Source: a virus (taxonomy: Duplodnaviria; Caudoviricetes). From it: 64,000 nt of DNA. Both the position numbers and the translations under genes were made by a program. The notes beneath the pieces are model-generated. The model did not search any database. It saw nothing but the letters and a program-made list of their open reading frames with translations, and was not told where the DNA came from. The first letter of the stretch is position 1. Each line of letters starts with the position of its first letter. Location: the IMG/VR virus record IMGVR_UViG_3300014204_000128, positions 49,384-113,383 of that record; one strand, written 5' to 3'. This document shows, piece after piece, positions 5,366 to 63,354 of the stretch.

Positions 5366-6636
5366 ATGTTTACGAAGCTACACAGCAACGATTAAAGATA
5401 ATATTTTCAGAGTTTGATAACGTTTATGTTTCATTCTCTGGCGGCAAGGATAGTGGAGTATTACTAAACCTTTGCATTGACTATATACGCCAGCATAATT
5501 TGAATATAAAACTCGGAGTTTTCCATTTAGATTATGAAGCTCAATACCAAATGACAACCGAATATGTCAATAAAACACTTGCTGAAAATACTGATATACT
5601 TGAAGTTTATCGTTGTTGCGTTCCTTTTAAGGTTGCCACATGCACGTCAATGCACCAAAATTACTGGCGACCTTGGGAAGAATCAAAACAAGATATTTGG
5701 GTTAGTAAAATGCCTGAGAATTGCTTTACAAAAAAGGACTTTTCATATTTTAAACCTACTATGTGGGATTATGAGTTTCAGGAACGATTTAGCCAATGGC
5801 TTCACGAACGAAACAGAGCAAAAAAAACATGTTGTCTTGTAGGCATCCGCACACAGGAAAGTCTTAATCGTTGGCGTGCTATTCACAGTGACCGCAATTA
5901 CAAAAAATACAATGGTTTGAATTGGACAAAAGAAATGTACGAAAATGTTTATAATGCTTATCCTATATACGATTGGATCACAACTGATGTGTGGACAGCA
6001 AACGGGCGTTTTAAATGGGATTACAATAAACTTTATGACTTATATTATAAGGCTGGAGTTGGTATAGAACAACAAAGAGTTGCAAGTCCTTTTCTTTCAA
6101 CCGCTCAAGGAAGCCTTAAACTTTATAAAATAATTGAACCTAACACATGGGGTAAACTAATAAGCCGTGTGAATGGCGTTAATTTTACGGGCTTATATGG
6201 TGGAACAACTGCAATGGGTTGGAATACAATTAAACTGCCCAAAGGCCACACGTGGGAAAGTTATATGTACTTTCTTTTAAGCACATTACCTGAAGAAACC
6301 AAGGCTAATTATTTAGATAAACTTTCAACAAGCATGAGGTTTTGGCGTGAAAAAGGCGGTGTTCTTTCATCATTAACCATTGATAAGTTAAAGAAGTCAG
6401 GTATTAAATTTGAAGTTGGAAAAACAACCAATTATAATACTTCAAAGTTGCCTGTTAAAATGGATTACATTGATGAAATTGATATTGCAGAAGCTAAAGA
6501 AATACCAACGTTTAAAAGAATGTGTATTTGCATTATGAAAAACGACCATTTGTGTAAATACATGGGATTTACTCTCACAAAAAACGAAATGGCCAGACGT
6601 AAGAATATTATCGAAAAATATAAACCATTATTATGA
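5362..6636 (+). CDS. ibrA: IbrA/YbdN-like PAPS-reductase (PP-loop) family protein with DUF3440-type C-terminus
   Basis: SFSGGKDS PP-loop, LDYEAQY, VGIRTQESLNRW, YPIYDW, C-terminal CICIMKNDHLCK. Confidence 0.9.
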   Translation: MNVYEATQQRLKIIFSEFDNVYVSFSGGKDSGVLLNLCIDYIRQHNLNIKLGVFHLDYEAQYQMTTEYVNKTLAENTDILEVYRCCVPFKVATCTSMHQNYWRPWEESKQDIWVSKMPENCFTKKDFSYFKPTMWDYEFQERFSQWLHERNRAKKTCCLVGIRTQESLNRWRAIHSDRNYKKYNGLNWTKEMYENVYNAYPIYDWITTDVWTANGRFKWDYNKLYDLYYKAGVGIEQQRVASPFLSTAQGSLKLYKIIEPNTWGKLISRVNGVNFTGLYGGTTAMGWNTIKLPKGHTWESYMYFLLSTLPEETKANYLDKLSTSMRFWREKGGVLSSLTIDKLKKSGIKFEVGKTTNYNTSKLPVKMDYIDEIDIAEAKEIPTFKRMCICIMKNDHLCKYMGFTLTKNEMARRKNIIEKYKPLL

Positions 6637-8811: not shown

Positions 8812-9418
8812 AATAAACTTACTAAAATTAGTAGCAAGGGCAACTTTATTGTTGTCCTTGTTATTTACTCACAGTTGTAACGAAACTGTCGAGAAACGGC
8901 CAGAGAAACGTATTGTGTACAAAACGGTACACGTTCGCAGAACTCTATTATACAATAAACAGGACTACGAAGAACTAGTATCTAAACTAAAGGAGTGGGA
9001 ATCATTTAGGGGGAATTTGTTCATAGGTTGCGCAGGAGAACGACTCATAGGATATGGTCACTTGGTTAGATGGAAAGACAAGCATAAATTCAGGAACGGA
9101 ATAACAGAAATACAGGCTGACAGTATACTCAGGTCAGACATAAACTACTTTATAAAGTACTCTTACAAGAAGACAGGCTTCAGTGGTAAGAAACTGCTAG
9201 CTGTTTCATCTCTAGTGTTCAACTCTGGAACTGCAAAATTCACACGGTCTAAACTGTACAAATACATGATGTGTAATAATGACTCAACAGGCATGACGTG
9301 GTTATCGTGGTGTAAGTACAAGAATAACAAAAAGTGGGTCACTAGTGAACACTTGAAGAAAAGAAGGGTCTGGGAAGTAGAAACGTATAATAGTTGTAAA
9401 ACAAATAAAAACAGATAG
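8804..9418 (+). CDS. GH24/T4-lysozyme-fold protein with N-terminal signal (possible lipoprotein)
   Basis: LKEWES...IGYGH, GITE.QAD.IL.SD, SLVFNSG, W..W, L..RR..E. N-terminal hydrophobic stretch ends in HSC. Confidence 0.8.
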   Translation: MNKINLLKLVARATLLLSLLFTHSCNETVEKRPEKRIVYKTVHVRRTLLYNKQDYEELVSKLKEWESFRGNLFIGCAGERLIGYGHLVRWKDKHKFRNGITEIQADSILRSDINYFIKYSYKKTGFSGKKLLAVSSLVFNSGTAKFTRSKLYKYMMCNNDSTGMTWLSWCKYKNNKKWVTSEHLKKRRVWEVETYNSCKTNKNR

Positions 9419-9600
9419 TATACGGGCAACATTAAGAAAGACTTGATCGTGTTATTAAAAAGCAGGTACTCAGATTTAAATGCAGAATTAAAAACTAAGT
9501 TGAAAAGTGTTCCATCTGACACTAGTTATGTAGAGGGTCAGATAGCCGAAATAAATAATATTGCAGCAAGATTTGAAATACAACTAAAGGGTAAGTAACA

Positions 9601-9981
9601 ATGATTATAGCTGTAGACTTCGATGGTACTCTAGTCAGTCATGAATATCCTGAAATAGGTAAACCATACGATGACGTTTTCAAGTTGTGTATCACTCTTA
9701 AAAGTATGGGTCATGAACTCATATTATTCACGTGTAGAGAGGATTACATATGTGGAAGACCACTGTTATCTGACGCAGTTTCATTTTGTAATAAGAAGGG
9801 TCTGTTTTTCGATGCAGTGAATGAAAACTTGGAAAGACATAAGAATATGGGTATACTATGCAGGAAACCAGTCTGGGATATACTAATTGATGATACAGCA
9901 GGTTTCGAACCATCAAAGTGGGCAGATATACTAGATACTGTCTTAAACAAGAAAACGTATATAAACTCAATAGACATATAA
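9601..9981 (+). CDS. HAD-superfamily phosphatase (BT0820-like)
   Basis: IIAVDFDGT, LILFTCR, FDAVNEN, RKP..DILIDD. Confidence 0.88.
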   Translation: MIIAVDFDGTLVSHEYPEIGKPYDDVFKLCITLKSMGHELILFTCREDYICGRPLLSDAVSFCNKKGLFFDAVNENLERHKNMGILCRKPVWDILIDDTAGFEPSKWADILDTVLNKKTYINSIDI

Positions 9982-9984
9982 AAC

Positions 9985-10332
9985 ATGGGTTCATGGGTAT
10001 CTCCATATTCTGGTAAGGGTACTACAAGTAGGTACACGCTGGAGAAGGTAGGTGTCTACTTCATACGTGACAAGTACACGAAGGAGATAGTGTACATTGG
10101 TATGTCAAGAAGTTCACTGTATAAAGCATCATACAGGCATTTCCAGAATTGGAATACCAGTGTGGGGTACAGGGTAGTGTATTCAGACAGAAATGGGTAT
10201 GAAATTAGATATATATTCATGGATAAGCGTCTGGTGAAGAGAACAGAAAAACGTTTGATACACAAGTTCAAACCACGAGATAACAAGGAAAGGTACGAGT
10301 ATGACAAGCAAGAAGAGCATTGTCCATTTTAA
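9985..10332 (+). CDS. small GIY-YIG nuclease-domain protein
   Basis: GVYFI..YIGMS..R..H; E..LI.KFKP..N. Confidence 0.75.
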   Translation: MGSWVSPYSGKGTTSRYTLEKVGVYFIRDKYTKEIVYIGMSRSSLYKASYRHFQNWNTSVGYRVVYSDRNGYEIRYIFMDKRLVKRTEKRLIHKFKPRDNKERYEYDKQEEHCPF

Positions 10333-10350
10333 CTTAATACAAATTTAATC

Positions 10351-11484
10351 ATGGCAAAAACAAACAAGGTAACGCCTATTTCTGAACTAAGGAAAGCATA
10401 TGGGAGACCAGAAACACAGTATTATGATACTGGTATCTTCTTATTGAATGACATTTGGGGAGGAGGTTTGCCTACGGGTAAGATAATAGAAATACACTCA
10501 GGTGAGGGTCTTGGTAAGACTACAATCATGCTACAGGCATGTAAGTCATTGATAGCGAAACATAACTTGAAGGTGGCTTACTTAGACGTAGAGAACGCAT
10601 TAGATATATCATTAAGGAGCAATTTGGGCATAGTACCATACGAAAGTAATGACGCTGTTGAACCATCTTTCGCTTACCTGTGCCCTTTCACGTACGATGA
10701 GGTGTCTAAGACACTAAACATACTCACTCGGGGTAATTATGATATCATAATCTATGATTCAATAGCCAATACAAGCCTGGACGTGGATGACTCAGAGGAA
10801 GAAGATTTCAAGATAAGCAAGAAACTGGGACAGCACGCATTACTACAGGGTGAGTTATTGAAGATGTTCAAGGGAAGACTAGCACGGTCTGGTAAAACAC
10901 TGGTAATAATAAACCAGATGAGAACTAATATCATTACTAATCCTATGAAAGCTAAGCATGCACCCGAATTGAAGCCTGCTGGTGGTAAGGTTCTAGACCA
11001 TAATTTCGATATAAGAACATCTATAGAACGTGTGGAGTGGATATTCGATGACAGCAAGGTTAAGATGGGGGCTAAACTCAGGTTAACTACAATAAAGAAC
11101 AAGGTGGCTCCTCCATATAGACAAGTAGAACTGGAACTAATATTCGGGTGGGGTATCAACAAGATAACTACACTCTGTACAGTACTGGTGAATAAGAATA
11201 TCGCTGTACGTACCGGGGCTGTTTATACTCTGCCTAATACTGTGAAATGTGTAGGTCTTGAGAAGTTGAAAGACTATATCCGCGAAAACTACGCATTGTG
11301 CTTGTCATTCGTCGGTGATAGTTCATATCAAGTGAACATACTAGGAGAGAAGATAGAAGAAGGGGCAGCCGTAGATAAAACAGCAGACGGGAAGGAAATA
11401 GTCATAAAGGAGGATGCCGAAACGGGCGGGGTCTCGTATAATGAACTGGAAGAATCATTTAAACAACCAACCAAAAGAAGATGA
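10351..11484 (+). CDS. recA: RecA/UvsX-like recombinase
   Basis: GGGLPTGKIIEIHSGEGLGKTT, YLDVENALD, IIYDSIA, IINQMR, GGKVL, KNKVAPPY. Confidence 0.92.
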   Translation: MAKTNKVTPISELRKAYGRPETQYYDTGIFLLNDIWGGGLPTGKIIEIHSGEGLGKTTIMLQACKSLIAKHNLKVAYLDVENALDISLRSNLGIVPYESNDAVEPSFAYLCPFTYDEVSKTLNILTRGNYDIIIYDSIANTSLDVDDSEEEDFKISKKLGQHALLQGELLKMFKGRLARSGKTLVIINQMRTNIITNPMKAKHAPELKPAGGKVLDHNFDIRTSIERVEWIFDDSKVKMGAKLRLTTIKNKVAPPYRQVELELIFGWGINKITTLCTVLVNKNIAVRTGAVYTLPNTVKCVGLEKLKDYIRENYALCLSFVGDSSYQVNILGEKIEEGAAVDKTADGKEIVIKEDAETGGVSYNELEESFKQPTKRR

Positions 11485-17652: not shown

Positions 17653-18906
17653 ATGGTAGAAGGTGATAAACTTAAAGAGTTCTCATTTGATGATGAACAG
17701 AAAACAGAAGGAACAGTTCCAATGGGAACTGTAGTAAGTGATGATGCTGTATTAAAAGAAACAGTCGAAAAGGCAATGACTGAAGAAAAGGTAGAAAGGG
17801 ACTTTGATAATTTCATGACATTCTCAGAAGGTTTACCTAGTATAGTATTCGACAAGAGAGACATTGCTCATTTCGTGGACATGGTAGGTTACCATTCAAG
17901 ACTGGGGTATGATAACTACACGCTATCATTCAAACTAGATACAGAGGGTTACGACAAAACAGGTACGGTTAAACTAGTCTATAATAACGGTACTGTACTG
18001 TGTATATCTGAAGTTAAAGTCAAGATGTCAGGAGTTGTTTCCAATTTCATAATCTCAGTTGAAACAATGTTGAAAGTATTCTCAGCAAGCCATGGGTACA
18101 TGTTCTTATTCGAGGAGAACTCAAATATATACGGGTATGTTCTCGGTGGTAGGGTATACTTAGAAACATATAAGGTCACAGTAGACATATGTGCAAAGGA
18201 ATACTTGATGGAGCAAATGAGTACTAGTGTGATTGAAGAGACTTCTACGGATCAGAAGTTTATCAGCACGCTTAAAATGCTTTACGAGGTTGTCAAGTCA
18301 GGTTCTCGCATAGAAGAGAAAGCAATATATTTCGAAAAAGACGCGACGTACATATACGCTGGAATAGTCATGGGAATGTTCGAAGGTCTCGGTTTGAAAC
18401 TTACATTGCAGGACATAGATATCAACACGTTATCAAAATATTTCTTTGACACTGAAGGTATAATTAAAATCAACGACCATGGCATATTCCTGAAATTCAC
18501 TTCAAACGGTCGTGAAGTATACTTGCAGAAACGTGGCTTGACACTATCAGATGACATGAAGTATACTGATTTCTCTGGTAAGGGTAGTATACAGGTTCCA
18601 ATATCTAGTGTGAACTCCATAGTATCATTCCTTATAGGTATGTCTAATAATACGGGCATTGCTAGTCTTGAAAGTGAAAATGACAACCTTAAAATAACAT
18701 GTTACCAGAAATCGTTGTGTGATAAATCGCTGTTCTCAATAAAAGGTCCATCAGTAGGTGATGGGTTATCCGAAATAAAAGTGCCACTGTCTACTTTAAA
18801 GACGTTCACAAAAGTATTCAATAGTCAGGTAACATTCAGGAACAACGGTTCCAAGTTGTACCTTAGTGGTATCGAAGGTAAATTAGTAATATTCGGAAAT
18901 CAGTAA
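17653..18906 (+). CDS. putative DNA sliding clamp (DnaN-like)
   Basis: Size, repeated alpha/beta pattern, and a DnaX-like loader elsewhere in the window. No diagnostic motif, so the function is tentative. Confidence 0.4.
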   Translation: MVEGDKLKEFSFDDEQKTEGTVPMGTVVSDDAVLKETVEKAMTEEKVERDFDNFMTFSEGLPSIVFDKRDIAHFVDMVGYHSRLGYDNYTLSFKLDTEGYDKTGTVKLVYNNGTVLCISEVKVKMSGVVSNFIISVETMLKVFSASHGYMFLFEENSNIYGYVLGGRVYLETYKVTVDICAKEYLMEQMSTSVIEETSTDQKFISTLKMLYEVVKSGSRIEEKAIYFEKDATYIYAGIVMGMFEGLGLKLTLQDIDINTLSKYFFDTEGIIKINDHGIFLKFTSNGREVYLQKRGLTLSDDMKYTDFSGKGSIQVPISSVNSIVSFLIGMSNNTGIASLESENDNLKITCYQKSLCDKSLFSIKGPSVGDGLSEIKVPLSTLKTFTKVFNSQVTFRNNGSKLYLSGIEGKLVIFGNQ

Positions 18907-18909
18907 TAT

Positions 18910-19182
18910 ATGAGCAATACAGGGAAATCTTTAACAGTCACGATGTGCTTGTTATCTCGTTTGAAAGAACGGGACAACAAGGACAAAGTTTTAGATGCCG
19001 TGCAAAACATATTAGTAGGCTCGGGGGTATGTACAGAAAAGGAAATATTAGAAGTGGAACAAAGATTCTCTGAGTTCATAAACATGGTGTTAAGTGGTAT
19101 AAATGAACGGAGTTTAACATACGACGAGTCATATAAGAAAGCGCAAAGTAAGTATCCAGAATTCAAAATTAATCCTAATTGA
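18910..19182 (+). CDS. hypothetical protein
   Basis: 90-aa ORF in a tightly packed operon. Confidence 0.65.
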   Translation: MSNTGKSLTVTMCLLSRLKERDNKDKVLDAVQNILVGSGVCTEKEILEVEQRFSEFINMVLSGINERSLTYDESYKKAQSKYPEFKINPN

Positions 19183-19834: not shown

Positions 19835-20509
19835 ATGGCTTTGAATGTTAATGTAGATGTGTTTTCGAATAAGGATATACGTGAAGCAGTAACAGTAATT
19901 AGAGACGTAGCAAGCAGAAGGAAACTAGGTATACCCAGATGGGACAATGTCTTAGACATGTACCCATACTCGGGTACTGTAGTGATACCGGTTAAGATTG
20001 GGGCACGTGTCTTCAAAGAACCATTTTATTTCGTAATAGAAAAAGTAAACGATAGAGAAAGTCTGCGTATAAAACCAGTAAAGGGAGACCAGTGGTCACT
20101 TGGTGACGTGTATGGTTTCTTTGGTCTGTATGATTTCTTTGATTACACTCTGGATATGCCTATACTAGTCGTGGAAGGTTTAAGTGATTGGGCTGCTGTA
20201 AAGCCTTACTACAAGTACACACTCTCATCATTATCGGCATGGGTCGGTTACAGACAGTGTTTTTTCATAAGTGGTATTAGTAGCAACATATTCCTGGGGT
20301 ACGACTTGGACGAAACAGGGGATAAAAACAAGAACAGGAATAGTGAAACACTAAACAAGATGGGTGCAAATGTAGGTTTCTTGCAGCCACCACAAAAGGA
20401 CTGGGGTCACATGTTCGAAAGTGATTTCGGTAAGATGCTTTTAGAAAAAACAATGTTAGGTTTCATGGAAAAAGTAAACAGTATAAACAGGAAAATATTA
20501 TACAAGTAA
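19835..20509 (+). CDS. TOPRIM-domain protein (primase-like)
   Basis: ILVVEGLSD and LGYDLDETG TOPRIM motifs; KDWG. Confidence 0.75.
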   Translation: MALNVNVDVFSNKDIREAVTVIRDVASRRKLGIPRWDNVLDMYPYSGTVVIPVKIGARVFKEPFYFVIEKVNDRESLRIKPVKGDQWSLGDVYGFFGLYDFFDYTLDMPILVVEGLSDWAAVKPYYKYTLSSLSAWVGYRQCFFISGISSNIFLGYDLDETGDKNKNRNSETLNKMGANVGFLQPPQKDWGHMFESDFGKMLLEKTMLGFMEKVNSINRKILYK

Positions 20510-23500
20510 TGGGTAGGACAGATGAATCCCTAAAGGGGTCAAGAAGCGAAAGAGAAGTACTTTTACAAAGGTTTGAAGGTACGGTCATAGAATCAATACT
20601 GGTACACAACAGGTCAGACAAAGCAACTGACTTAACTGTTGAAAGAAGGTACGATAATGTTAAGGAAACAAGGGAAGCATTCCTAGATGAATATATAAGT
20701 AAGTCGGGGGACTTGGAGAACATAGCTGACATGGATGAGTTTAAGCAGCAGTTCAGGTCAGGCTTCGAAGGTTCTCGGGGTGCTGGGAAGACACTCTCTC
20801 GGTTCTCTCAGAACATTTGCAGGAACGTGATACAGTTCTACACGGAAGAAGGTGATACTATAGTCGACCCGTTCGCTGGTCATAATTGTTTAACACAAGA
20901 AGCTCCAGTAATATCTAAAAGAGGGGTTATTCCAATAGAGGATATTGTAGTTGGTGACTTTGTATTAACACACAAGAATAGATTCAGAGAAGTTATAGGT
21001 ACACAGAAAAACTATGGTGGTGATGGTGGTAAACAATTCACAATAGCAGGCAATATGGTTTTGCCAATAACTGACAACCATCCTATGTGGGTATATCAAA
21101 CAGAACTGTGTCCTTACTATAGAAATGATAAAACACTAGTTTCTGGTAAACGTTGCTTAAAAGAATGTTCTATAAGTAAGAATAAAGAAAATCTTGTACG
21201 TATTAAAAAAGGTGACGTTAATTATAGGGGAGGGGATAGACGTACTAGTATGTGTACTAAACCATTTGAAAATTACAAGGCTGACTTTAAGTATGCAAAA
21301 GACGTAAAAGTAGGTTCATACATTGGTTTTCCTATAGACTCTGATATTATAGACACTGAATTTATACTCATTTCTGATAAAACATGGATAGGTAGCAATA
21401 CTAAAATACAGGGGGACTATATTGTTACTACAAAAAAAGTAAATAATAAAATACTCATAAATGAAGAATTTATGAGATTAGTTGGTTACTTTATAGCAGA
21501 AGGAACTGCACTAGGATCTTTGACGTTTTCTTTTCATAAAAAAGAAGTCGAGTATAGGAAAGACGTTATGTATTTACTTGACAAATGTCTAGGTATGGAC
21601 AGTAGCGAAGAAATAAATGATGAAACAAACACAGGTTATGTTATTTCTGAGAACTCTGAAGCAATCACACGATTTTTTAGAGAAACATTCGGTACACATT
21701 CATACAGTAAAAAGTTACCGGAATTTTTAATGAAGTTGCCAAAAGAAAAACAAAAGGAATTCATACTCGGTTACTTTAGAGGTGATGGGCATTTTAATAC
21801 AGAAACATCCCAAAGGGTAGCTGTTACGACATCACAGACGTTAGCACTTCAATTAAAAATACTGTTACTTAGATTAGACTTGATACCTAACACAAGAAAG
21901 GTGCCTTTTGAAAAACAAAATAGTTACAAAATTAATGATAAGTGGGGAATACAATCAAAACATGATGCATACTATGTATACGTGTCAGGATCTGATATAA
22001 ATGTTATAGATAAGATACTTGGTAATAAACACGATGTTATTTATAAAAATAAATTTAATACTTTCGTAAAAGACGGGTACGCTTGGTATAAGGTTCTAAA
22101 GATTAAAGACCATGATCTATCACAGAAATACGTATATAATATCGAAGTAGATGAAGATAATTCATATACATTGATGCAGGGTTGTGTACATAATAGTAGA
22201 ATGGAAGCAACGTATAGGACGAACCGCAATTACTATGGGCAGGACTTATGCCACGAGTTCATGGAAGACAATAGGAAGGTACGTGATATGCTATTGGCTC
22301 AAAACAGTGGTAAACTATTCATGAAGCCAAAAACAACAGTGATAGATTTATCTGAAGGGGACAGTCGGAAATTGCCTTGGGACGATAACTTCGGTGATTT
22401 CACGGTCACAAGCCCACCGTATTGGTGTCTAGTACCTGAAACTCATATATTAACAAAAAGAGGTACTATTGAAATACAAGATTTAAAAGAAGGGGACTTT
22501 GTTTACACACATAATGGGAGGTGGAGAAAAGTAAAGGGTGTTTCATTTAGAGAAATAGACGATACAATCACACGTATAAAGGTAAAGAATAACAGTACTC
22601 CACTAAATTTAACAGATAATCATAAGTTACTTGCATTAAAAACAAGTGTTTGTGCATACTTTAAAAAAGACAGTGTGTGTAGACCAAATTGTGGATATCT
22701 AAATAATGGAAACTGGGAAAAGCATAAATGTACAAAAAGTTGTGAAAACTATACACCAACGTTTACTCTGCCTACAGAACTAACACGTCAACATTATGTT
22801 GCTGCTCCTATAGACAGAACTGTGAATAAATCTGAAAACATAATACTCAGAAAAACAGTAGCAAAAAATAAGTATGATTTTACTCTTAAAAATGATATAC
22901 CAGTAACTAAGGAACTAGCAAGGTTCATAGGTTATTATATAGCAGAAGGGTCAAGTGTAGAAGGTGGTGTAGATTTGTGTTTTAATAAAAACGAAGTAGA
23001 GTACATTGAAGACGTTAAAAATCTATTTGAAACATTGTTTGGGATAAGTCATGTATACTATCATGAGCAAGTAAATGCTGCACATGTTGGGGTGTACTGC
23101 ACTCCACTACAAGAGTGGTTAAATGTAAATTGTGGAGAAGGTTCTCTAAATAAAAAAGTGCCAGACTTTTTATTACATGAAGAATTAGAAATTCAAAAAG
23201 AATTAATGCTTGGGCTTTACAGTGGTGACGGGTGTGACTATTCTGAAGGGTATAATTACTCAACAGTTTCTAAGACACTGAAAGAACAAATAAAATTCAT
23301 TCTATTAAGGTTTAATATATCTCCAACAATGGGTCACCAAAAAGGTGGTTACAGGAATATACTGGGAAGAGTATGTTACACTAATACATCTTATAGTTTG
23401 AACGTAATAGATAAAAATGGAATATGCCTGCTTGACAATGTACTTGGAAGAAAACATCGTAAAGCAAATATAGGGACTAATTGTTATTCACAGTCCTTTA

Positions 23501-23985
23501 TAGTCAATGACTACGTGTATTACAGAGTTTCTAAAGTAAGTAAGATACATTATAAGGGTAAAGTTTATAATTGTGAAGTAGAAGAAGACAATAGTTATAC
23601 TACAGACGTTTGCACAGTCCATAATTGTTTAGAAGACTATGGTCCAGAAAAGGAACAACTGGGTTACGGGATGAACCAGACATACGAGGAGTTCCTAGAT
23701 GGGATGCAACTAGTGTGTAATGAAAACTACAGGGTATTAAAACCAGGAGCTTTCTGTATTTACTTTATCAATGACTTTCGTAAGGATGGGAAGTTCTACG
23801 ATTTCCACGGTGACATGAAGAATCTATTGGTGAACTCTGGGTTCGTGTATCATGATTTAATAATAGCAGATTTGGGGCCAAGTCTCAGGTCTGTATTTTT
23901 AGCAGCTGCTTTCAAAAGTAAGGTATTGCCAAAGAGACATGAATTTGGGGTGGTGATGAGAAAACCATTATTGAAAGGGAAATAG
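20509..23985 (+). CDS. DNA amino-methyltransferase (SPPY, N4-C/N6-A) interrupted by two inteins; ~322-aa spliced product
   Basis: Extein motifs VDPFAGHN|S, GDSR, TSPPYW|C, RVLKPG, KRHE. Confidence 0.9.
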   Translation: MGRTDESLKGSRSEREVLLQRFEGTVIESILVHNRSDKATDLTVERRYDNVKETREAFLDEYISKSGDLENIADMDEFKQQFRSGFEGSRGAGKTLSRFSQNICRNVIQFYTEEGDTIVDPFAGHNCLTQEAPVISKRGVIPIEDIVVGDFVLTHKNRFREVIGTQKNYGGDGGKQFTIAGNMVLPITDNHPMWVYQTELCPYYRNDKTLVSGKRCLKECSISKNKENLVRIKKGDVNYRGGDRRTSMCTKPFENYKADFKYAKDVKVGSYIGFPIDSDIIDTEFILISDKTWIGSNTKIQGDYIVTTKKVNNKILINEEFMRLVGYFIAEGTALGSLTFSFHKKEVEYRKDVMYLLDKCLGMDSSEEINDETNTGYVISENSEAITRFFRETFGTHSYSKKLPEFLMKLPKEKQKEFILGYFRGDGHFNTETSQRVAVTTSQTLALQLKILLLRLDLIPNTRKVPFEKQNSYKINDKWGIQSKHDAYYVYVSGSDINVIDKILGNKHDVIYKNKFNTFVKDGYAWYKVLKIKDHDLSQKYVYNIEVDEDNSYTLMQGCVHNSRMEATYRTNRNYYGQDLCHEFMEDNRKVRDMLLAQNSGKLFMKPKTTVIDLSEGDSRKLPWDDNFGDFTVTSPPYWCLVPETHILTKRGTIEIQDLKEGDFVYTHNGRWRKVKGVSFREIDDTITRIKVKNNSTPLNLTDNHKLLALKTSVCAYFKKDSVCRPNCGYLNNGNWEKHKCTKSCENYTPTFTLPTELTRQHYVAAPIDRTVNKSENIILRKTVAKNKYDFTLKNDIPVTKELARFIGYYIAEGSSVEGGVDLCFNKNEVEYIEDVKNLFETLFGISHVYYHEQVNAAHVGVYCTPLQEWLNVNCGEGSLNKKVPDFLLHEELEIQKELMLGLYSGDGCDYSEGYNYSTVSKTLKEQIKFILLRFNISPTMGHQKGGYRNILGRVCYTNTSYSLNVIDKNGICLLDNVLGRKHRKANIGTNCYSQSFIVNDYVYYRVSKVSKIHYKGKVYNCEVEEDNSYTTDVCTVHNCLEDYGPEKEQLGYGMNQTYEEFLDGMQLVCNENYRVLKPGAFCIYFINDFRKDGKFYDFHGDMKNLLVNSGFVYHDLIIADLGPSLRSVFLAAAFKSKVLPKRHEFGVVMRKPLLKGK
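20887..22194 (+). mobile_element. intein 1 with LAGLIDADG homing endonuclease (436 aa)
   Basis: Starts CLTQEAPV; block B ITDNHPM; LVGYFIAEG and GYFRGDG; ends VYNIEV..CVHN followed by Ser+1. Confidence 0.93.
22426..23625 (+). mobile_element. intein 2 with LAGLIDADG homing endonuclease (400 aa)
   Basis: Starts CLVPETHI; LTDNHKL; FIGYYIAEG and GLYSGDG; ends VYNCEV..TVHN followed by Cys+1. Confidence 0.93.
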
Positions 23986-31268: not shown

Positions 31269-32018
31269 ATGGCAACAATAGTGGGTAAGAAACAACTCGG
31301 GGACGTCAATAAAGGTGACTTAAAAGCACAGGTAATTGAAAAACTGATAAGTCTAGGTAACAATCCCGATGAAGTCAAGAAAATGGTAGAACAGGAATTC
31401 GAGTATGTCTCTAAGAAATACACTGGGGTATCTAAGATAGCTGAAGTAATCAGTTCATTGTATGAACAGAGTGATAATGCAAAGTTGGTCGTGAAGAAAA
31501 AACAGGTAAGTGATGCAGCAGGGAAATACAAGGTCGGGGATGAGGTATATACATGGCAGAACCCAAATTTCAAATGTAAGATAGTGAAGGTGCTAAGTGG
31601 TTCTGAACCATCTTACATCGTTGATTTACCAGACCCTGACAATGAAGGTAAGTTCATTAAAAGCAAACCAGTAAAGGAATCTGAAGTTGACATGAAGCCA
31701 ATAAAAGATAGTACAACTACAAAAGGAACTATAGCCAAGAAGAAAGTACAAGACGCTGGAGGACCTGTAAGTATATCAATACAGGAAAAGGACGGAATGA
31801 TCGTCATGGAATTGACAGGACCACAGTGTCAGATGATGGCTGAATTTATCAAGAAGAAATTCAGCAAGGAAGTTGAAGAGGTTGCTCCGATCTCAGGTGG
31901 TGTTGCTGTGTACTTCGATCCAAAGAAAGTAAACAAGTCAAAGTTAAACGCTATTAAGACAGAAATAGAAAACAACTCCAGTATAACAGCTAATTTCATG
32001 GATTCTAAAAATATATAG
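31269..32018 (+). CDS. multi-domain putative head-internal protein
   Basis: Small domains (including KOW/SH3-like YKVGDEV) separated by K-rich linkers ending VSDA, IKDS, VQDA, FMDS. Confidence 0.55.
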   Translation: MATIVGKKQLGDVNKGDLKAQVIEKLISLGNNPDEVKKMVEQEFEYVSKKYTGVSKIAEVISSLYEQSDNAKLVVKKKQVSDAAGKYKVGDEVYTWQNPNFKCKIVKVLSGSEPSYIVDLPDPDNEGKFIKSKPVKESEVDMKPIKDSTTTKGTIAKKKVQDAGGPVSISIQEKDGMIVMELTGPQCQMMAEFIKKKFSKEVEEVAPISGGVAVYFDPKKVNKSKLNAIKTEIENNSSITANFMDSKNI

Positions 32019-36673: not shown

Positions 36674-37159
36674 ATGCCAGCTCCCATAATAAAGTCATTT
36701 GCAGAAAAGAGTGGTAAGTCAGAAAAAGAAGTAGAAAGACTATACAAGGAATCTAAGAAGATTGTAAGTAAAGAATACAATCTGAAAGAATCAGATGGTG
36801 AGTCATTCTACCAGTTGGTAATAGGTGTACTTAAGAAGATGTGTGGTATCTCTGATAGTATAACAATTCATATATGTTCTAATTGTCAAGAAGAAGTAAG
36901 TGACTCAAGCAAGTTCTGTGGGTCTTGTGGAGGTGAACTAATGGATGGTGAAACAGGCATGATGTATAAGATAAGTAAGAGTGACATAGATGCACTAAGT
37001 TCATTCTTATACACTATGCTTAAGACTAAAATAGTGTTTAGTGACTTGATGAGATTTATAAAGAACACAGTTCGTGCATATAGTGAACCTACCCAGGATA
37101 GTTTCGTCGAGTTTGTCAAGAGTTTAAGTGAAAAAGATATTAGAAACTTAATAAAATAA
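36674..37159 (+). CDS. putative head protein with internal Zn-ribbon cassette
   Basis: N-terminal helical domain, ISDS, CSNC..VSDS.KFCGSCGGELMD, then a short helical domain. Confidence 0.7.
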   Translation: MPAPIIKSFAEKSGKSEKEVERLYKESKKIVSKEYNLKESDGESFYQLVIGVLKKMCGISDSITIHICSNCQEEVSDSSKFCGSCGGELMDGETGMMYKISKSDIDALSSFLYTMLKTKIVFSDLMRFIKNTVRAYSEPTQDSFVEFVKSLSEKDIRNLIK

Positions 37160-38183: not shown

Positions 38184-39524
38184 ATGGCTAAGATAAAAAT
38201 AAGTCCGATAGAGACTAACTTACTATTTGATTTCAAAAAGGTAGACGGGGCTAAAATTCCTCCAGGATGTCTAGCAGTATTAGAAGGATACGCTACTCTA
38301 TCAGATGATAAATCAAATCGTAACAAACATTTCTATCCTACTGGATTCTGGAATAGCGTGCTTGATAATAACCAGTCAGTCGCTGAAAAACTAGCAACAA
38401 AGACGTTTTTCGGAGCATATAGGCATCCTGAGAAGGAAGAAAGTCCTATACCAGAGTTCGGATCATTCTCTCACAATATACGTGATTACAGGGTTGACAA
38501 GAAAGGTGTATTCGTTACACTCGACGTATTCGATAATACACAAGGTCGGGAATTAAAGCCACTAATTGATTATGGTTCTCAACTTGGAATATCTACAAGA
38601 GCATATGGTGAAGTTCAGGTAGCGAATGATGGTTATAAGACGCCCATTCTAGATAAGTACTTATTTGTTACATGGGATTTGGTATCGTTCCCGGCATTCT
38701 CGGAAACAAGAATGACAAGTGTATCTGATTCAGTTGTAATAGAGGTGGATGATTCAATATTCAACTCTAAGAACAAACAAGAACTACTCGATAGTATCAA
38801 GAAACTTGAGAAGAAAGAAGCCAGGATGCTGTGTGATTACATGGACATAGACTTTAAAGAAATATCAGACTCATTTAGCGGGGAGTGTTCTGGTGGTTGC
38901 TCAGGTAAAACATGTGGTCGTTGCAAAGATAAGAGCAAAGAAGGTGAAACAGACGTTGAAAAAGCTCTGGGTGATGCAATGAATAAGATAGTGGAGTTGG
39001 AAACTGAACTGGGAAAACATCAAGGTTCTGAAGACAGCACTGGATTACAAAATAAAATAGCTATTTTAACTGACGAAAACACCCAGTTAAAAAACAGTAT
39101 CAACTTGAAACAAGACGTTGAAAAAGCAAGGTTGAAAAACTCTGTAGAATTTCTAAAAGAAAAGATACAGGATATGGAAGCAGACAATGCAATTCTTGAA
39201 TCAAAAAATAAAACTCTGCGTTCTATAGTGGATTCAAAACATGCTCAGGTATCAGAACTATCTGAAAAACTAGAGGATGCTCAAACTACATTATCAGAAC
39301 TTAGACAAGAGTTTGATTCTACGCTAAAATTAAAGCAAGCGTTAGAGGATAAACTATCAACAATCAAAGTAACAAATTCACTACAAGATAACTCGGTTAA
39401 AGGTACTACCAATGCTAGTACGAAGGCAGCAAGACCAATGCTCATTGCTGATTCAGTTAAACCTAGTAAAGCCACAAGTGATATCGACAGTATGAAAACA
39501 GTATTCAAAAAATTAAAATCTTAA
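38184..39524 (+). CDS. prohead protease (gp21-like) fused to coiled-coil scaffold
   Basis: NRNKHFYP, GAYRHP (His), LGISTRAYG (Ser), TWDLVSFPAF (Asp); long coiled-coil C-terminus. Confidence 0.88.
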   Translation: MAKIKISPIETNLLFDFKKVDGAKIPPGCLAVLEGYATLSDDKSNRNKHFYPTGFWNSVLDNNQSVAEKLATKTFFGAYRHPEKEESPIPEFGSFSHNIRDYRVDKKGVFVTLDVFDNTQGRELKPLIDYGSQLGISTRAYGEVQVANDGYKTPILDKYLFVTWDLVSFPAFSETRMTSVSDSVVIEVDDSIFNSKNKQELLDSIKKLEKKEARMLCDYMDIDFKEISDSFSGECSGGCSGKTCGRCKDKSKEGETDVEKALGDAMNKIVELETELGKHQGSEDSTGLQNKIAILTDENTQLKNSINLKQDVEKARLKNSVEFLKEKIQDMEADNAILESKNKTLRSIVDSKHAQVSELSEKLEDAQTTLSELRQEFDSTLKLKQALEDKLSTIKVTNSLQDNSVKGTTNASTKAARPMLIADSVKPSKATSDIDSMKTVFKKLKS

Positions 39525-39528
39525 GGGA

Positions 39529-40983
39529 ATGGACTTTTTAGCTTTACAGGCAGACTTTCTAAAGAAAGCTGAACCTATGATGGATAACTACAAGGAGAGA
39601 ATCAATGTAGTAGCAAGTGTGGTTGCTGATTTAAAAAACCCACGCATGACTATGAGCGACTTCGATAAAGCGTCTCTGGCTATGATGTATGACAACATTG
39701 ATAGTACACTACTCAGGTACAAGAAATTGAAGAACTTAAGTGACCGCACTTTCTCTGAAACAGTTGGTCCATACAAAAAACACGCTTACAATATCATAAG
39801 CGCTATGTACACAACTTTAGAGATTCGTGATATTATCTCTATCCAACCATTGCTCCAAAAAAGAGGTGCAATCTATAAAATGATTTACGAGTTCGCATCG
39901 AACAAGGGGTCAATCAGAGAAGGAGACACTATGTTCTCACCTGACAGCGCAGGTAAACGTTCACGCTATTACTCTAGTCAGATAATTGATGGTGAGCCTG
40001 TAGTGTTTACTTTCGATACTACAGACAGTCAAGCTATCCTGGAGTATTTCCCAATTATTAAACCTGAGAAAATAAGTATCGTGGTCACAGGTGGTGCAGC
40101 AGCAGGTACATACACATATTTGAATGCTGTGAATGGCATTTACAACTTGCAGAAAGGTTCTGTAGCAACAGCAGTTGGTACTCTTAACCCTATCAATGGT
40201 CTGTTAACATTACTCGCAGTTGACGCAACAGGTGCTACTAGTACAGTAGCAACATATAACTGGAATAGTGAGAAGTTCTCTAATAACTCACAGATACCAA
40301 GGGTTACAATTGGTGTAACAGAACAAGAGGTAACTGCTGAACGTAGGAACTTGATGATTGATACTATGCTGGATGTGTCTTATGACTTTGAAACCCAGTT
40401 TGGTCAAGCATTGAATTCACAGTTAGAGACTACTGTTATTCAGTACTTACAAAACGAATTCGCATTCAGAATATTAGGTGAAATGTACGATGGTTCGACT
40501 GGTAACGGGGGTACTACATTTACATTCAGTACAACACCTGCTTCTGGTATCACATTGCAAGACCATGCTCAGCAACTTTACAAGATGTTGGCTGAAATGT
40601 CTTCAAAAATCCGTAAGAATGTAGGAAGAGGTTGGGGTAACAAGATTGTCTGTGGTGACAATATGTTAAACTTCCTAAAAGTGCTGTCTGCTGACGAGTT
40701 CGTTCGTGCTCCAAAACCCAAAGGCGATGGACCATACTACGCTGGTAATATCAACGGTGATTATGACGTGTACTACAATCCTGATATACCAGCAACTGGT
40801 TTCATGATGTTGTACAAGGGTGAAACATGGTGGGATGCTGCTTACTACGTTGGTACTTACCTTCCATTAATGAATAGCCAATTCCTACTTTATCCAGACA
40901 TGCACGGTGAGCAAGGGTATATTGCAATGGATTCGTTCTCATACGAGTATCCTCAAATGGTCGTTAAAGGAACTATTAGTTAA
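39529..40983 (+). CDS. major capsid protein (T4 gp23-like)
   Basis: DIISIQPL..KRGAIY, IPRVTIGV..QEVTAERRNL, GWGNKIVC, VYYNP, MLYKG..WDAAYY..YLPL. Confidence 0.9.
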   Translation: MDFLALQADFLKKAEPMMDNYKERINVVASVVADLKNPRMTMSDFDKASLAMMYDNIDSTLLRYKKLKNLSDRTFSETVGPYKKHAYNIISAMYTTLEIRDIISIQPLLQKRGAIYKMIYEFASNKGSIREGDTMFSPDSAGKRSRYYSSQIIDGEPVVFTFDTTDSQAILEYFPIIKPEKISIVVTGGAAAGTYTYLNAVNGIYNLQKGSVATAVGTLNPINGLLTLLAVDATGATSTVATYNWNSEKFSNNSQIPRVTIGVTEQEVTAERRNLMIDTMLDVSYDFETQFGQALNSQLETTVIQYLQNEFAFRILGEMYDGSTGNGGTTFTFSTTPASGITLQDHAQQLYKMLAEMSSKIRKNVGRGWGNKIVCGDNMLNFLKVLSADEFVRAPKPKGDGPYYAGNINGDYDVYYNPDIPATGFMMLYKGETWWDAAYYVGTYLPLMNSQFLLYPDMHGEQGYIAMDSFSYEYPQMVVKGTIS

Positions 40984-43622: not shown

Positions 43623-43898
43623 ATGAAAAATATTTTAGCTAAAAAAGTGATGGACACTCCAGATGTGATGCTAGTTGGAACTCCAGTACAATTACCCAGT
43701 GATTTAAAATCTCTGGTTTCAACAGTGTTTGGTACTAGTGGCAATACTGAAGAAATATCAGGAACATACAGGGTGGAAGTAAAATCTAACGACATAATAG
43801 AAGGTGCTACATTAAAGAAACTGGTGTCAAACCCATCATTTTCTCAAATAAAAGCACAGGGTAAAGGAATGTATTTGATCTGGTTCATTAAAGAATAG
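43623..43898 (+). CDS. hypothetical protein
   Basis: 91 aa; N-terminal KKVMDT motif. Confidence 0.6.
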   Translation: MKNILAKKVMDTPDVMLVGTPVQLPSDLKSLVSTVFGTSGNTEEISGTYRVEVKSNDIIEGATLKKLVSNPSFSQIKAQGKGMYLIWFIKE

Positions 43899-53935: not shown

Positions 53936-54142
53936 ATGACAGTAGAAGAAACGATTGCTTTCATTAAGCACGAGAGAACTAGAAAAGCTATCTCATTACG
54001 GGATTTGGGAAAGAAATGTGACGTGAGGGCTGCAACTATCTCAGAGATAGAGAATGGTAAGTCAAAAGGTGAGTTCGACACTATAGTTAAACTGCTCAAT
54101 GGTCTAGGTTATGATTTCGAACCAGTAAAACAAAAAATTTAG
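53936..54142 (+). CDS. XRE/Cro-family HTH transcriptional regulator
   Basis: IKHER..KAISLRDLGKKCDV..ATISEIENGK...FDTIVKLLNGLG. Confidence 0.9.
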   Translation: MTVEETIAFIKHERTRKAISLRDLGKKCDVRAATISEIENGKSKGEFDTIVKLLNGLGYDFEPVKQKI

Positions 54143-54157
54143 AATATTTTATATATT
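54133..54157 (+). promoter_or_regulatory. putative late promoter
   Basis: AAAAATTT-N8-TTATATATT upstream of the Zn-ribbon gene. Confidence 0.65.
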
Positions 54158-54175
54158 AACTATAAATTTTATAGT

Positions 54176-54463
54176 ATGAAAAAGGTAATTTATAAATGTG
54201 AAAAGTGCTCAGGTGAGATAAGCGACTCACAGAAGTTTTGCAACCATTGTGGTTCTCAGTTAATGGATGCTCAAAAACAATACTATATTGTAGAAGTTGA
54301 AAAAGGTGTTGACTGGCCAAATGGGTACTTAAATTATAACGGAGATGTTGTAGAAAGTATAAAAAAGGCAGAAAAATTTGAAAATAAAGTAGATGCCGAG
54401 AATGCTGCAACTTCATTTAATATAGAATACGGAAATAAACGAATATATGCAAGAGTAAGATAA
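54176..54463 (+). CDS. Zn-ribbon-leader protein with short cargo domain
   Basis: MKKVIYKCEKCSGEISDSQKFCNHCGSQLMD followed by an unrelated 64-aa domain. Confidence 0.8.
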   Translation: MKKVIYKCEKCSGEISDSQKFCNHCGSQLMDAQKQYYIVEVEKGVDWPNGYLNYNGDVVESIKKAEKFENKVDAENAATSFNIEYGNKRIYARVR

Positions 54464-54513
54464 TGGTTGACGCAAACGCACTAAAAGAACCAATACTGCA
54501 AAAGTCAGTTTGA
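54463..54513 (+). pseudogene. 16-codon remnant resembling the 5' end of gene 57171
   Basis: MVDANALKEPILQK vs MISANILKELILEK; shared DNA ACTAAAAGAAC...GTCAGT. Confidence 0.5.
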
Positions 54514-54522
54514 AAATATTAA

Positions 54523-55374
54523 ATGAATACAATTGAACACAACAGAATAGAAAGAGAAGAATTCACAGGTATCTACTACGGTGTGGTTCTCAGCGTCGAA
54601 GATCCTGAGAAGGTTGGAAGGATAAAAGTACGTGTTCGTGGTATATTCGATGAACCCATAAAGAAGGAAGACATTCCTTGGGCTGTTCCTACTGGGAACA
54701 GCGGGGGAATAGAACTTGGGTCTGAGGTAGCTGTCTGGTTTACAGACGGGGATATAGAAAGGCCTAACTACATGCCAAAAACATACTTAGACAAGAAGCA
54801 AATAGAAGACCTTGATAAGTTGTTAGCAGGTGTATCAATGAAGAAGAAAGACTCTGCAAAGAGTGGTGTGTCGGTGGTCAGTAAATCTTTTGATGAACCT
54901 GTATCAGATTCTGATGGTAAGAACAGCCCGTACAAAAAACTGGTTGTTTTACCGTTACAGGTGGACAAGGAGAACGGGGAGACTGTGGATACAGGAAGTC
55001 CTGATAACGGTCTGGTCGTTGAGGTCAACAGGGAAAAGGGAAAGGAAGAAGTTTCTATATATCATCCTAGCGGGACATTCATAGACATAAGGGAAGACGG
55101 TTCTGTGGTCATACATAGTGCTTCTGATATATACAACATAGCAGACGGCATAATGGGTGTATCACTCGGTGGGGACTTATTGATAAAAGTAGATGGTTCT
55201 GTTGAGGTTAGTGCAATGGAAATAAAAATAAAGGCGTTGAAGGTCACGGTAACGGGTGGTGAGTTGGACGTAAGTGGTTCGGTCGTTCCTACTGGTTCGG
55301 GGCCATTCTGTGGGTTACCTAGTTGTATATTCAGCGGGGCACCACATTCAGGAAGTAAAGTACTCGGAACATAA
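54523..55374 (+). CDS. baseplate central spike (gp5/gpV-like OB-fold plus beta-helix, no lysozyme domain)
   Basis: GVV...DPEKVGRIKVRV, IPWA.P, V.VWF.DGD..RP, IYHPSGTFIDI..DG; C-terminal C..C....PH. Confidence 0.88.
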   Translation: MNTIEHNRIEREEFTGIYYGVVLSVEDPEKVGRIKVRVRGIFDEPIKKEDIPWAVPTGNSGGIELGSEVAVWFTDGDIERPNYMPKTYLDKKQIEDLDKLLAGVSMKKKDSAKSGVSVVSKSFDEPVSDSDGKNSPYKKLVVLPLQVDKENGETVDTGSPDNGLVVEVNREKGKEEVSIYHPSGTFIDIREDGSVVIHSASDIYNIADGIMGVSLGGDLLIKVDGSVEVSAMEIKIKALKVTVTGGELDVSGSVVPTGSGPFCGLPSCIFSGAPHSGSKVLGT

Positions 55375-55388
55375 TAATATACATAGTC

Positions 55389-55900
55389 ATGAAAAACCAA
55401 TTTATAAGTGCGAAAAATGCGATGGTGAAATCTCTGATACTTCTAAATTCTGTGGGCATTGTGGGTCTCAATTCATAGGTGACTCATCTACGGGTATTCC
55501 AATAGACATAGCAAATAAAATGGCTGCTGACATAACAAGTGATATAGAACCAATAGCAAAAGATAACTTCTTCATGGCACGTCAACAAAGCATGATAGGA
55601 AATGTGGTTTCTATCTCTTTTGCTCTTGGCAAAGATAAGTCTGAATGGCCTCATGGTATATTTGAAAATGATCCCGCCAAAATAAAAATGTTGATACAAA
55701 CGGAAAACGATGGTTCTACAGTTACATTGAATATCGTGTCTAAGGCATACGAGATAAAAGACATAAAGATAAATAGTAAGACAGGTACACCAGAACAGGT
55801 CACAAAGTACGTTATCGAAAAGCTCAAAAAAGTTATTCCAGAAATAAATAGTAAAAAAGAACAGTTACTAAAAAATAGTTATGAAAAAAGTAATTTATAA
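55389..55900 (+). CDS. Zn-ribbon-leader protein with a one-base deletion in the A-run after the ATG (frameshifted or sequencing error)
   Basis: ATGAAAAACCAATTTATAAG is one base short of the paralog starts ATGAAAAAAGTA / ATGAAAAAGGTA. The cassette KPIYKCEKCDGEISDTSKFCGHCGSQFIGD is open in another frame. Confidence 0.65.
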
Positions 55901-57125
55901 GTGCGAAAAGTGTGAAGGCGAGATCTCTGATAGCGACAAGTTCTGTACTCACTGTGGTAGCCAACTAATGGACTCAATTTTAGTTGTGCCTGAAAACATA
56001 AAAGAAAGTGACTTAAAAACAAGCGTTACGGGTAAATTCTATTACATTGACAAAGAGGGAATGACAGAACCAGCTAATGAAGGTGAGTCAAAGAAAGACT
56101 TTATCAAGAGGTTAAAAAAGTTGGGAAAAAAGAATAATACTGACGCTTGTAAAGCAAAAGGTAAGAAGAAAATAGCAGACGCTGGTGAAGACGCGATGCT
56201 GGGGTCAGAAGATCCTACAATATCATTCGATCCAACTGACGCATATCAAGCAATGATTGAAGACATAGGGGCTACTGATGTAAATGCTTTCTTTGGGTCT
56301 GAAAAAGAATTCACAGGTATGGTGGATGAAATAGTAAACGGTGAAAACATGACAGAAGCTGAGGCTGTGGATGCTCTCATGCAAATGTTCTACCAATTCA
56401 TGGAAGACCCTGAAGGGTTCATGGCTGAGATGGAAGCACCTGTAGAAGATTCAGTGTCTACGAATAAGAAGGCTAGGTACGTGGTTGATCAACTGGTGAA
56501 GATACCAGGAGTAACGCATGGTAAAGCAGTAGCGTTATTGGCATATCACGGTTCTATGAAGAACATACGTGCCATGAAGGATTCAAAGTCGCTTTTAAAG
56601 TTCAAATACTTGAAGGATGTCGTCGGGGAGTCAACGGCAAAGAATGTGGTTGATTATTTCGCTGGGAAGAAGACGTTAGCAAGTTCGCCTTTGAACTATG
56701 ATAGTGTTGACGCAATCAGTTACGCTATGCAACGTTTAAATGATAGTGCTGAATTTTCAGAAAAGAAAACATATAATGAGAATAATATCATGGACGCTGC
56801 AAATCAGTATAAACAAGGTGGTTTTTCAAAAGTAGTCTACAAGTGTGAAAGTTGTAGTGGTGAAATATCTGATAGTGACAAGTTCTGCACACATTGTGGT
56901 TCTCAGTTAATGGATGCTACACAACAAAAAACATACGATGTGTTTTTTAATGATGATGACTCTTCTAATAATTTAGGGTTTAAGAAGAGTCTTAAATATT
57001 GTAAAGACTATATTAAACAACATAATGGTACAAAACATTTATATTTTGCAGATTATAAAGGAGGGTCAGTTTCTGTAGTATGTAATGAGACAGGAGATAT
57101 GGTCTACGAAACAACTGTAAAGTAG
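55881..57125 (+). CDS. polyprotein-like head protein with two Zn-ribbon cassettes and several small domains (including HhH)
   Basis: Cassettes at 55881-55973 and 56829-56915; HhH-like LVKIPGVTHGKAVALLAYHGS; linkers ending IADA, VEDS, MKDS, LNDS, IMDA. Confidence 0.8.
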   Translation: MKKVIYKCEKCEGEISDSDKFCTHCGSQLMDSILVVPENIKESDLKTSVTGKFYYIDKEGMTEPANEGESKKDFIKRLKKLGKKNNTDACKAKGKKKIADAGEDAMLGSEDPTISFDPTDAYQAMIEDIGATDVNAFFGSEKEFTGMVDEIVNGENMTEAEAVDALMQMFYQFMEDPEGFMAEMEAPVEDSVSTNKKARYVVDQLVKIPGVTHGKAVALLAYHGSMKNIRAMKDSKSLLKFKYLKDVVGESTAKNVVDYFAGKKTLASSPLNYDSVDAISYAMQRLNDSAEFSEKKTYNENNIMDAANQYKQGGFSKVVYKCESCSGEISDSDKFCTHCGSQLMDATQQKTYDVFFNDDDSSNNLGFKKSLKYCKDYIKQHNGTKHLYFADYKGGSVSVVCNETGDMVYETTVK

Positions 57126-63153: not shown

Positions 63154-63184
63154 TATGAAAGTCTATAAATGTGAAAATGCATGG

Positions 63185-63209
63185 AAGTTGTCAGGTTATA
63201 TGACAACTT
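63185..63209. other. 9-bp inverted repeat at end of late module (possible terminator/operator)
   Basis: AAGTTGTCA-ggttata-TGACAACTT. Confidence 0.4.
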
Positions 63210-63354
63210 TTATGATTTGTATGTGTAACGCTGATATAATACTATACTACAGAAAGTGAACCTATTGTTAAGATATATAAAATATATGTAAGGGACTATA
63301 AAACTAGATAAATAGGTAAGTGAAGAAATTCCTTAGTAAACTATCGCAGGGATC

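Follow-up and report, generated by a model that had tools for sequence, protein, structure and literature searches.

A reiterated zinc-ribbon cassette in an uncultured T4-like phage is a candidate capsid-targeting propeptide for exchangeable cargo proteins

The window, by which we mean the whole stretch of 64,000 nucleotides analysed here, makes up the final 64 kb of a viral contig of 113,383 bases whose portal, protease-scaffold, capsid, sheath and baseplate genes are T4-like. Five cassettes with the pattern CxxC-x10-CxxCG, each a 31-residue C4 zinc ribbon, are encoded in it, all on the + strand (Table 1). The original prediction, made from the sequence of the window alone, had placed four clustered cassettes of about 31 residues and a diverged copy at 36875-36946 in the head module; all of these are present, the clustered four having 19-28 of 31 residues in common and the diverged copy lying on the + strand. 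A supposedly decayed sixth copy did not hold up: the short ORF 63155-63268 resembles the cassette only in a few residues at its start, lacks the second Cys pair and gives no significant profile match (E 1.8). A profile built from the five copies detected no further significant cassette over the 113,383-base genome (next match E 0.24).

The phage is an uncultured T4-like virus whose capsid protein is only 20-29% identical to those of the cultured relatives LIS04, HSE3, Molly and YerA41, while 19 uncultured capsid proteins (40-72% identical) make up one side of a tree branch (support 81/91, with long branches). The scarcity of Shine-Dalgarno motifs, present at 6 of 105 starts against a background of 9%, and one cargo in common with Bacteroides phages point to a host among the Bacteroidota. 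The motif TTATATATT occurs 9 times in the window (2.3 expected), also upstream of the protease and sheath genes, and is a candidate late promoter; scans for sigma-70 promoters and terminators gave no signal over chance. An HTH_3 regulator gene (53936-54142) lies between the hub and spike genes and has the same position in relative L026, and a methyltransferase-like gene (20509-23985) contains two inteins. The ORF at the contig end (63821-64000) is, as we presume by eye, acyl-carrier-protein-like. Outside the window, positions 14988-35284 of genome C1 hold tail-fibre-like, lysis and amidase genes in a block apart from the main structural module.

Table 1. Cassettes, cargos and related features of the window (positions of the window; aa, amino acids).
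Feature	Position	Strand	Remark
Modular late protein with short basic Lys-Lys-x-Val-x-Asp motifs	31269..32018	+	candidate second tag
Head-module protein (36674)	36674..37159	+	helical N-domain, diverged cassette, conserved 70-aa domain
Diverged cassette inside head-module protein 36674	36854-36946 (or from 36875)	+	
gp21-type prohead protease fused to scaffold	38184..39524	+	phrog_207 E 8e-24
gp23-type major capsid protein	39529..40983	+	T4 gp23 structures matched
TTATATATT, candidate late promoter for cassette gene 54176 and for protease and sheath operons	54149..54157	+	putative function
Zinc-ribbon cassette, N-terminal	54176..54268	+	ends in Leu-Met-Asp
Cargo A	54269..54463	+	64 aa, without significant family
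Cassette of frameshifted gene	55388..55483	+	ATG 55389 in other frame
Cargo B	55484..55900	+	138 aa, weak phrog_3308/25196 matches
Cassette, N-terminus of modular protein 55881	55881..55973	+	protein of 414 aa
Lineage-specific insert of 55881	55974..56822	+	acidic helical module and helix-hairpin-helix-like module (about 56448-56669)
Internal cassette of 55881	56823..56915 (or from 56829)	+	Ile-Met-Asp site before, Leu-Met-Asp end
Last cargo of 55881	56916..57125	+	69 aa, stand-alone homologs

The cassette belongs to the Zn_Ribbon_1 type of C4 zinc ribbons in Pfam (PF13240; DZR-like), and the invariance of its four Cys suggests that it binds zinc. Two of the cassette proteins (36674 and 55881) exceed the Zn_Ribbon_1 cut-off of 25 bits, with scores of 28.4 and 37.4, and the other two (54176 and 55391) fall narrowly under it, with 23.4 and 20.6. 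The CxxC-x10-CxxCG pattern is common to the cassette and to Zn_Ribbon_1/DZR domains. Generic members, however, form tandem arrays and belong to bacterial proteins, whereas the cassette is a lineage-specific subfamily that stands singly before each cargo and ends in an Asp junction. When 1.84 billion representatives were searched with the profile, most matches were generic tandem ribbons with scores of 35 bits or less; twelve proteins of the cassette subfamily stood apart at 39-76 bits per domain, and P0088 (30 bits) was counted in the subfamily by its context. Including the window, the subfamily comprises 31 copies in related uncultured phages. It is absent from the LIS04, Molly_1, YerA41 and HSE3 genomes (4 of 4), tblastn against cultured phages gave no convincing match, and pattern scans of IMG/VR and metagenomes returned almost nothing (L001, a generic ribbon of an unrelated virus, and L015, a 46% match).

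Similarity between the clustered copies ends near the junction, as had been noted, with 13-29 of the next 60 nt identical. The reported 27 identical nt (54245-54271 and 56892-56918) are real and extend one codon beyond the Asp; since the chance of such a run among six copy pairs is about 0.02, we take it as mild evidence for one recent exchange at a junction. The cassettes at 54176 and 55881 agree in 28 of 31 residues and yet differ at 16 codons synonymously. Across all six pairs pS is 0.70-1.17 and pN 0.11-0.22, indicating selection on the protein, and synonymous sites are saturated; with a single 27-nt run, the conserved DNA is not supported as the general recombination handle that had been proposed. 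Recombination within the cassette now and then is nevertheless a likely route of cargo swapping. For each of the four clustered copies the nearest relative is another window copy (75-89%), orthologous copies elsewhere reaching at most 71%; such resemblance despite saturated synonymous sites is as expected if all copies of one genome had to fit one genome-specific binding partner.

The cargos behind the window cassettes differ in their distribution. Stand-alone homologs of cargos A and B were searched for and none were found; a homolog of cargo B stands behind a cassette in relative L010. Directly after gene 54176, a 16-codon ORF (54463-54513) resembles the start of gene 57171 in 9 of 14 residues (30 of 51 nt identical, background 29) and may be a scar left when a cassette-cargo unit was moved. 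Five A follow the ATG at 55389, and this ATG is in the wrong frame for the cassette, its own frame ending after 29 codons. The same frameshift is present in two further assemblies (three in total), one of which carries an SNP relative to the window; an assembly error is therefore unlikely. Because the cassette is out of frame with the ATG in three assemblies, this gene is probably switched off, and the five-A run (55389-55397) may belong to a phase-variable or recently silenced gene. The modules in the insert of 55881 are joined by low-confidence linkers with Asp sites: an AlphaFold model (pLDDT 50, pTM 0.26) consists of separate modules, with confidence lowest at the Asp-bearing linkers, and fold searches with this low-confidence model were uninformative. 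The helix-hairpin-helix-like module matches weakly (E 0.01) and its model resembles the UvrC C-terminus (TM 0.72), which we treat as a lead. The last cargo of 55881 is 54-73% identical to stand-alone genes of 66-70 aa in many contigs, one of them encoding gp40 in the replication region of Bacteroides phage BU1-1. These homologs start 4 residues after the junction Asp of the window, and for this cargo the expectation that cargo domains also exist as free genes was borne out. Searches of the ribbon-bearing cargos against Pfam, PHROG and NCBIfam matched no function and no anti-defence role.

Related phages carry many copies per genome (up to 6-7) with hypervariable downstream domains, as the original prediction had anticipated: the 30 cargos fall into 22 unrelated clusters. 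The cassette is N-terminal in 23 of the 31 copies and internal in eight; one copy, in L008, is C-terminal with no cargo behind it. There is one copy per cargo, and cassettes are never in tandem, unlike the generic ribbon arrays. Where the surrounding DNA of subfamily members could be fetched, tagged genes were found between the spike and baseplate-wedge genes (L007, L008 and L012), within the head module (L003, L005 and L009) or, in L010, in a tandem block among non-structural genes outside the structural module. In L009, five tagged genes occupy 5.7 kb, with seven copies when L012, from the same run, is counted in; in another case 6 copies lie in 5 tandem genes. Exchange of cargo is seen in L005, where the N-domain and cassette are as in 36674 and a different cargo domain follows; this domain recurs in P0115, again preceded by a cassette, and in L012, where it has none. 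This is direct sequence evidence for shuffling at the junction. Interchangeability is not universal, as two fusions are fixed across relatives: the 36674 type (its 70-aa domain is cassette-fused in four of four phages with this region read) and the acidic and helix-hairpin-helix-like core of 55881 (four proteins).

The prediction further held that the prohead protease could remove the cassette at Leu-Met-Asp and destroy it at an internal Ile-Ser-Asp. The junction does resemble a protease site, its Asp matching the specificity that the head proteins of this lineage suggest. Capsid Asp72 (39742-39744), the predicted end of the propeptide, does not vary among 19 relatives, and LIS04, Molly_1, HSE3 and YerA41 have Glu at the aligned position. 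Asp sites are enriched in the scaffold here and Glu sites in the scaffolds of LIS04, Molly_1 and HSE3, that of YerA41 departing from the Glu pattern; the Asp sites flanking the protease domain of the 38184 type are conserved. The family assignments PF03420 and PF07068 were matched on the proteins of relatives. The pattern hydrophobic-x-Asp-Ser/Ala occurs 8 times in the 38184 protein (1.6 expected) and 24 times in head proteins (9.2 expected), compared with 12 times in tail proteins (13.9 expected) and 43 times in non-structural proteins (35 expected). A ribbon-less SAM lyase of L012 (PF23780; 6996-7577), encoded between the hub and spike genes in the same variable locus as ribbon-bearing cargos and with homologs in Lak and Campylobacter phages, starts MIHD|SGLAR; the homolog of Paraglaciecola virus GD1 has a T4-like leader and begins MKTFSEFLGE|SGLSR, and in three other homologs Glu takes the place of the leader Asp of the L012 protein. 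From the agreement of head-protein enrichment, capsid Asp72, scaffold sites and this leader, we infer that the gp21-type protease of the lineage cuts after Asp, in hydrophobic-x-Asp before Ser/Ala. A Cys-rich scaffold-linker insert (residues about 230-250 of the 38184-39524 product) directly follows an invariant Asp site and is absent from four relatives. Among the cassettes themselves, 28 of 30 copies have an Asp no more than 8 residues past the last Cys pair, compared with 134 of 468 for generic ribbons. The internal site of the prediction, a hydrophobic-x-Asp-Ser/Thr that lies between the two Cys pairs, is likewise far commoner in cassettes (20 of 31 versus 25 of 468), Fisher P values for both sets of counts overstating independence as the copies share descent.

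In L026 and L012, the orthologs of 55881 have the helix-hairpin-helix-like core but no ribbon, and short basic motifs (for example VKAKKKVMD) precede their modules, so the ribbon, judged by these orthologs, is not required. Seven small late proteins contain 10 instances of the basic motif (0.5 expected), and elsewhere its frequency is about background; because the pattern was defined from those same examples, this enrichment is a lead only. Besides the late protein at 31269, motifs of this type are found in the window at 43623-43898, in L026 at 18039-19178, in L012 at 9223-9996 and 11029-11256, in L005 at 6131-6439 and in L003 at 460-1527. In these small late proteins they stand at the N-terminus or where a module starts, positions at which relatives carry the zinc ribbon, and the motif is possibly a second capsid tag.

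We consider it rather probable that the cassette serves as a folded propeptide for capsid targeting, similar in its working to the capsid-targeting sequence (CTS) of T4 without being a member of the CTS family, from which it differs in leader sequence, fold and terminal residue. Late in infection, ribbon proteins would be drawn into the assembling prohead, where one core component would recognise the ribbon. The gp21-type protease would then remove the ribbon after the junction Asp, as the co-variation of sites suggests, and probably also cut between its two Cys pairs. The freed cargo would remain in the head and, by analogy with T4, probably be delivered with the DNA. New cargo would arise when a small gene lands behind a duplicated cassette, the fusion pattern being evident and the route conjectural; some cargo genes would come from unrelated phages of the same hosts. 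The ribbon tag itself probably derives from a core head gene of the 36674 type, and the short basic Asp-ending peptide may replace it in some relatives. Counted against a tag are the two fixed fusions, the ribbon-less orthologs of 55881 and the ribbon-less SAM lyase, the cargo-less C-terminal copy of L008, the eight internal copies, the position of the L010 block outside the structural module, the departure of the YerA41 scaffold from the Glu pattern and the lack of a known function for any ribbon-bearing cargo. The full combination, in which a metal-binding tag is removed and destroyed by an Asp-specific protease, is interchangeable with a basic tag, has receptor-matched copies and takes cargo from unrelated Bacteroidota phages, is a tentative proposal.

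The ribbon could instead be a micro-domain released from processed head polyproteins, for example a DNA-binding or zinc-carrying bead, with targeting left to a basic N-terminal strand or to Asp-site linkers. We judge this unlikely: it would accommodate the C-terminal L008 copy, the ribbon-less orthologs with their basic motifs and the internal copies, which are often flanked by Asp on both sides (four of eight by a strict pattern), but the metal site would be broken by cleavage at the Asp-Ser/Thr site that this lineage has between the Cys pairs, new cargo behind each copy would be superfluous for a free bead, and the copies are largely N-terminal and never tandem. A disposable tag is favoured by the single, mostly N-terminal copy for each cargo and by the probable cleavage within the metal site. 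It is improbable that the cassette is an ordinary, lineage-expanded interaction domain docking proteins on a cytoplasmic partner (a host or phage enzyme or the baseplate) with no capsid loading. Its score as a Zn_Ribbon_1, a promiscuous domain, the three window genes among baseplate genes, the L010 copies among non-structural genes and the fixed fusions speak for such a role, which leaves unexplained the Asp junction and its match to capsid and scaffold sites, the head-module insertions of L005 and L009 and the late-promoter-like motif. That the repeat matters chiefly as DNA, whether as a recombination handle or as what is left of recent duplications, is very improbable and largely refuted, for the 27-nt identity and the 57171-like remnant would fit it, but the ratio of pS to pN in all six pairs places selection on the protein.

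If the cassette is a capsid tag, its presence makes it easy to draw up a list of candidate injected proteins for phages probably infecting Bacteroidota, and the 22 cargo families, nearly all without assigned function, would form a set for counter-defence screens. Our literature search, which covered few subscription papers, returned no paper on a zinc-ribbon capsid tag or on an Asp-specific gp21-type protease. Polyvalent proteins of phages and conjugative elements, which combine several catalogued effector domains and often a zincin peptidase, are likewise modular late proteins encoded near virion genes and proposed to be packaged and processed (PMC5512222); here, however, no catalogued domain was matched apart from the weak helix-hairpin-helix lead, processing points to the head protease, and that paper does not use the word 'ribbon' (PMC5512222). 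The prohead protease of SPN3US cuts after A-x-E and prefers Ser next (PMC10052503). The head propeptides of SPN3US and phiKZ resemble the cassette in their several cuts, the Ser after the site and a proposed targeting role, and differ in having Glu at the end of their sites and in not consisting of a single folded module used over and over (PMC10052503). In T4, the CTS of internal proteins IPI-III is removed by gp21 (PMC9026906, PMC12373910), at sites that end in Glu, Asp at position 10 stopping processing (PMC9026906); Ip1-3 have only this packaging-directing leader in common, and every one of them inhibits a GmrSD nuclease (PMC12373910). As in T4, a common leader precedes unrelated small proteins that vary between relatives, its end is a (here predicted) gp21-type protease site, and the head genes are of the gp20/gp21/gp23 type. 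The cassette differs in its form (a four-Cys ribbon of 31 residues, where the CTS is a linear peptide of 10), in occurring also internally and in ending in Asp rather than in (Ile/Leu)-x-Glu, in line with a lineage-wide switch from Glu to Asp. The T4 CTS, a short linear peptide, is the best-characterised capsid-loading tag in the literature searched; a folded ribbon tag would be a different solution, and its defined surface should ease finding the prohead receptor.
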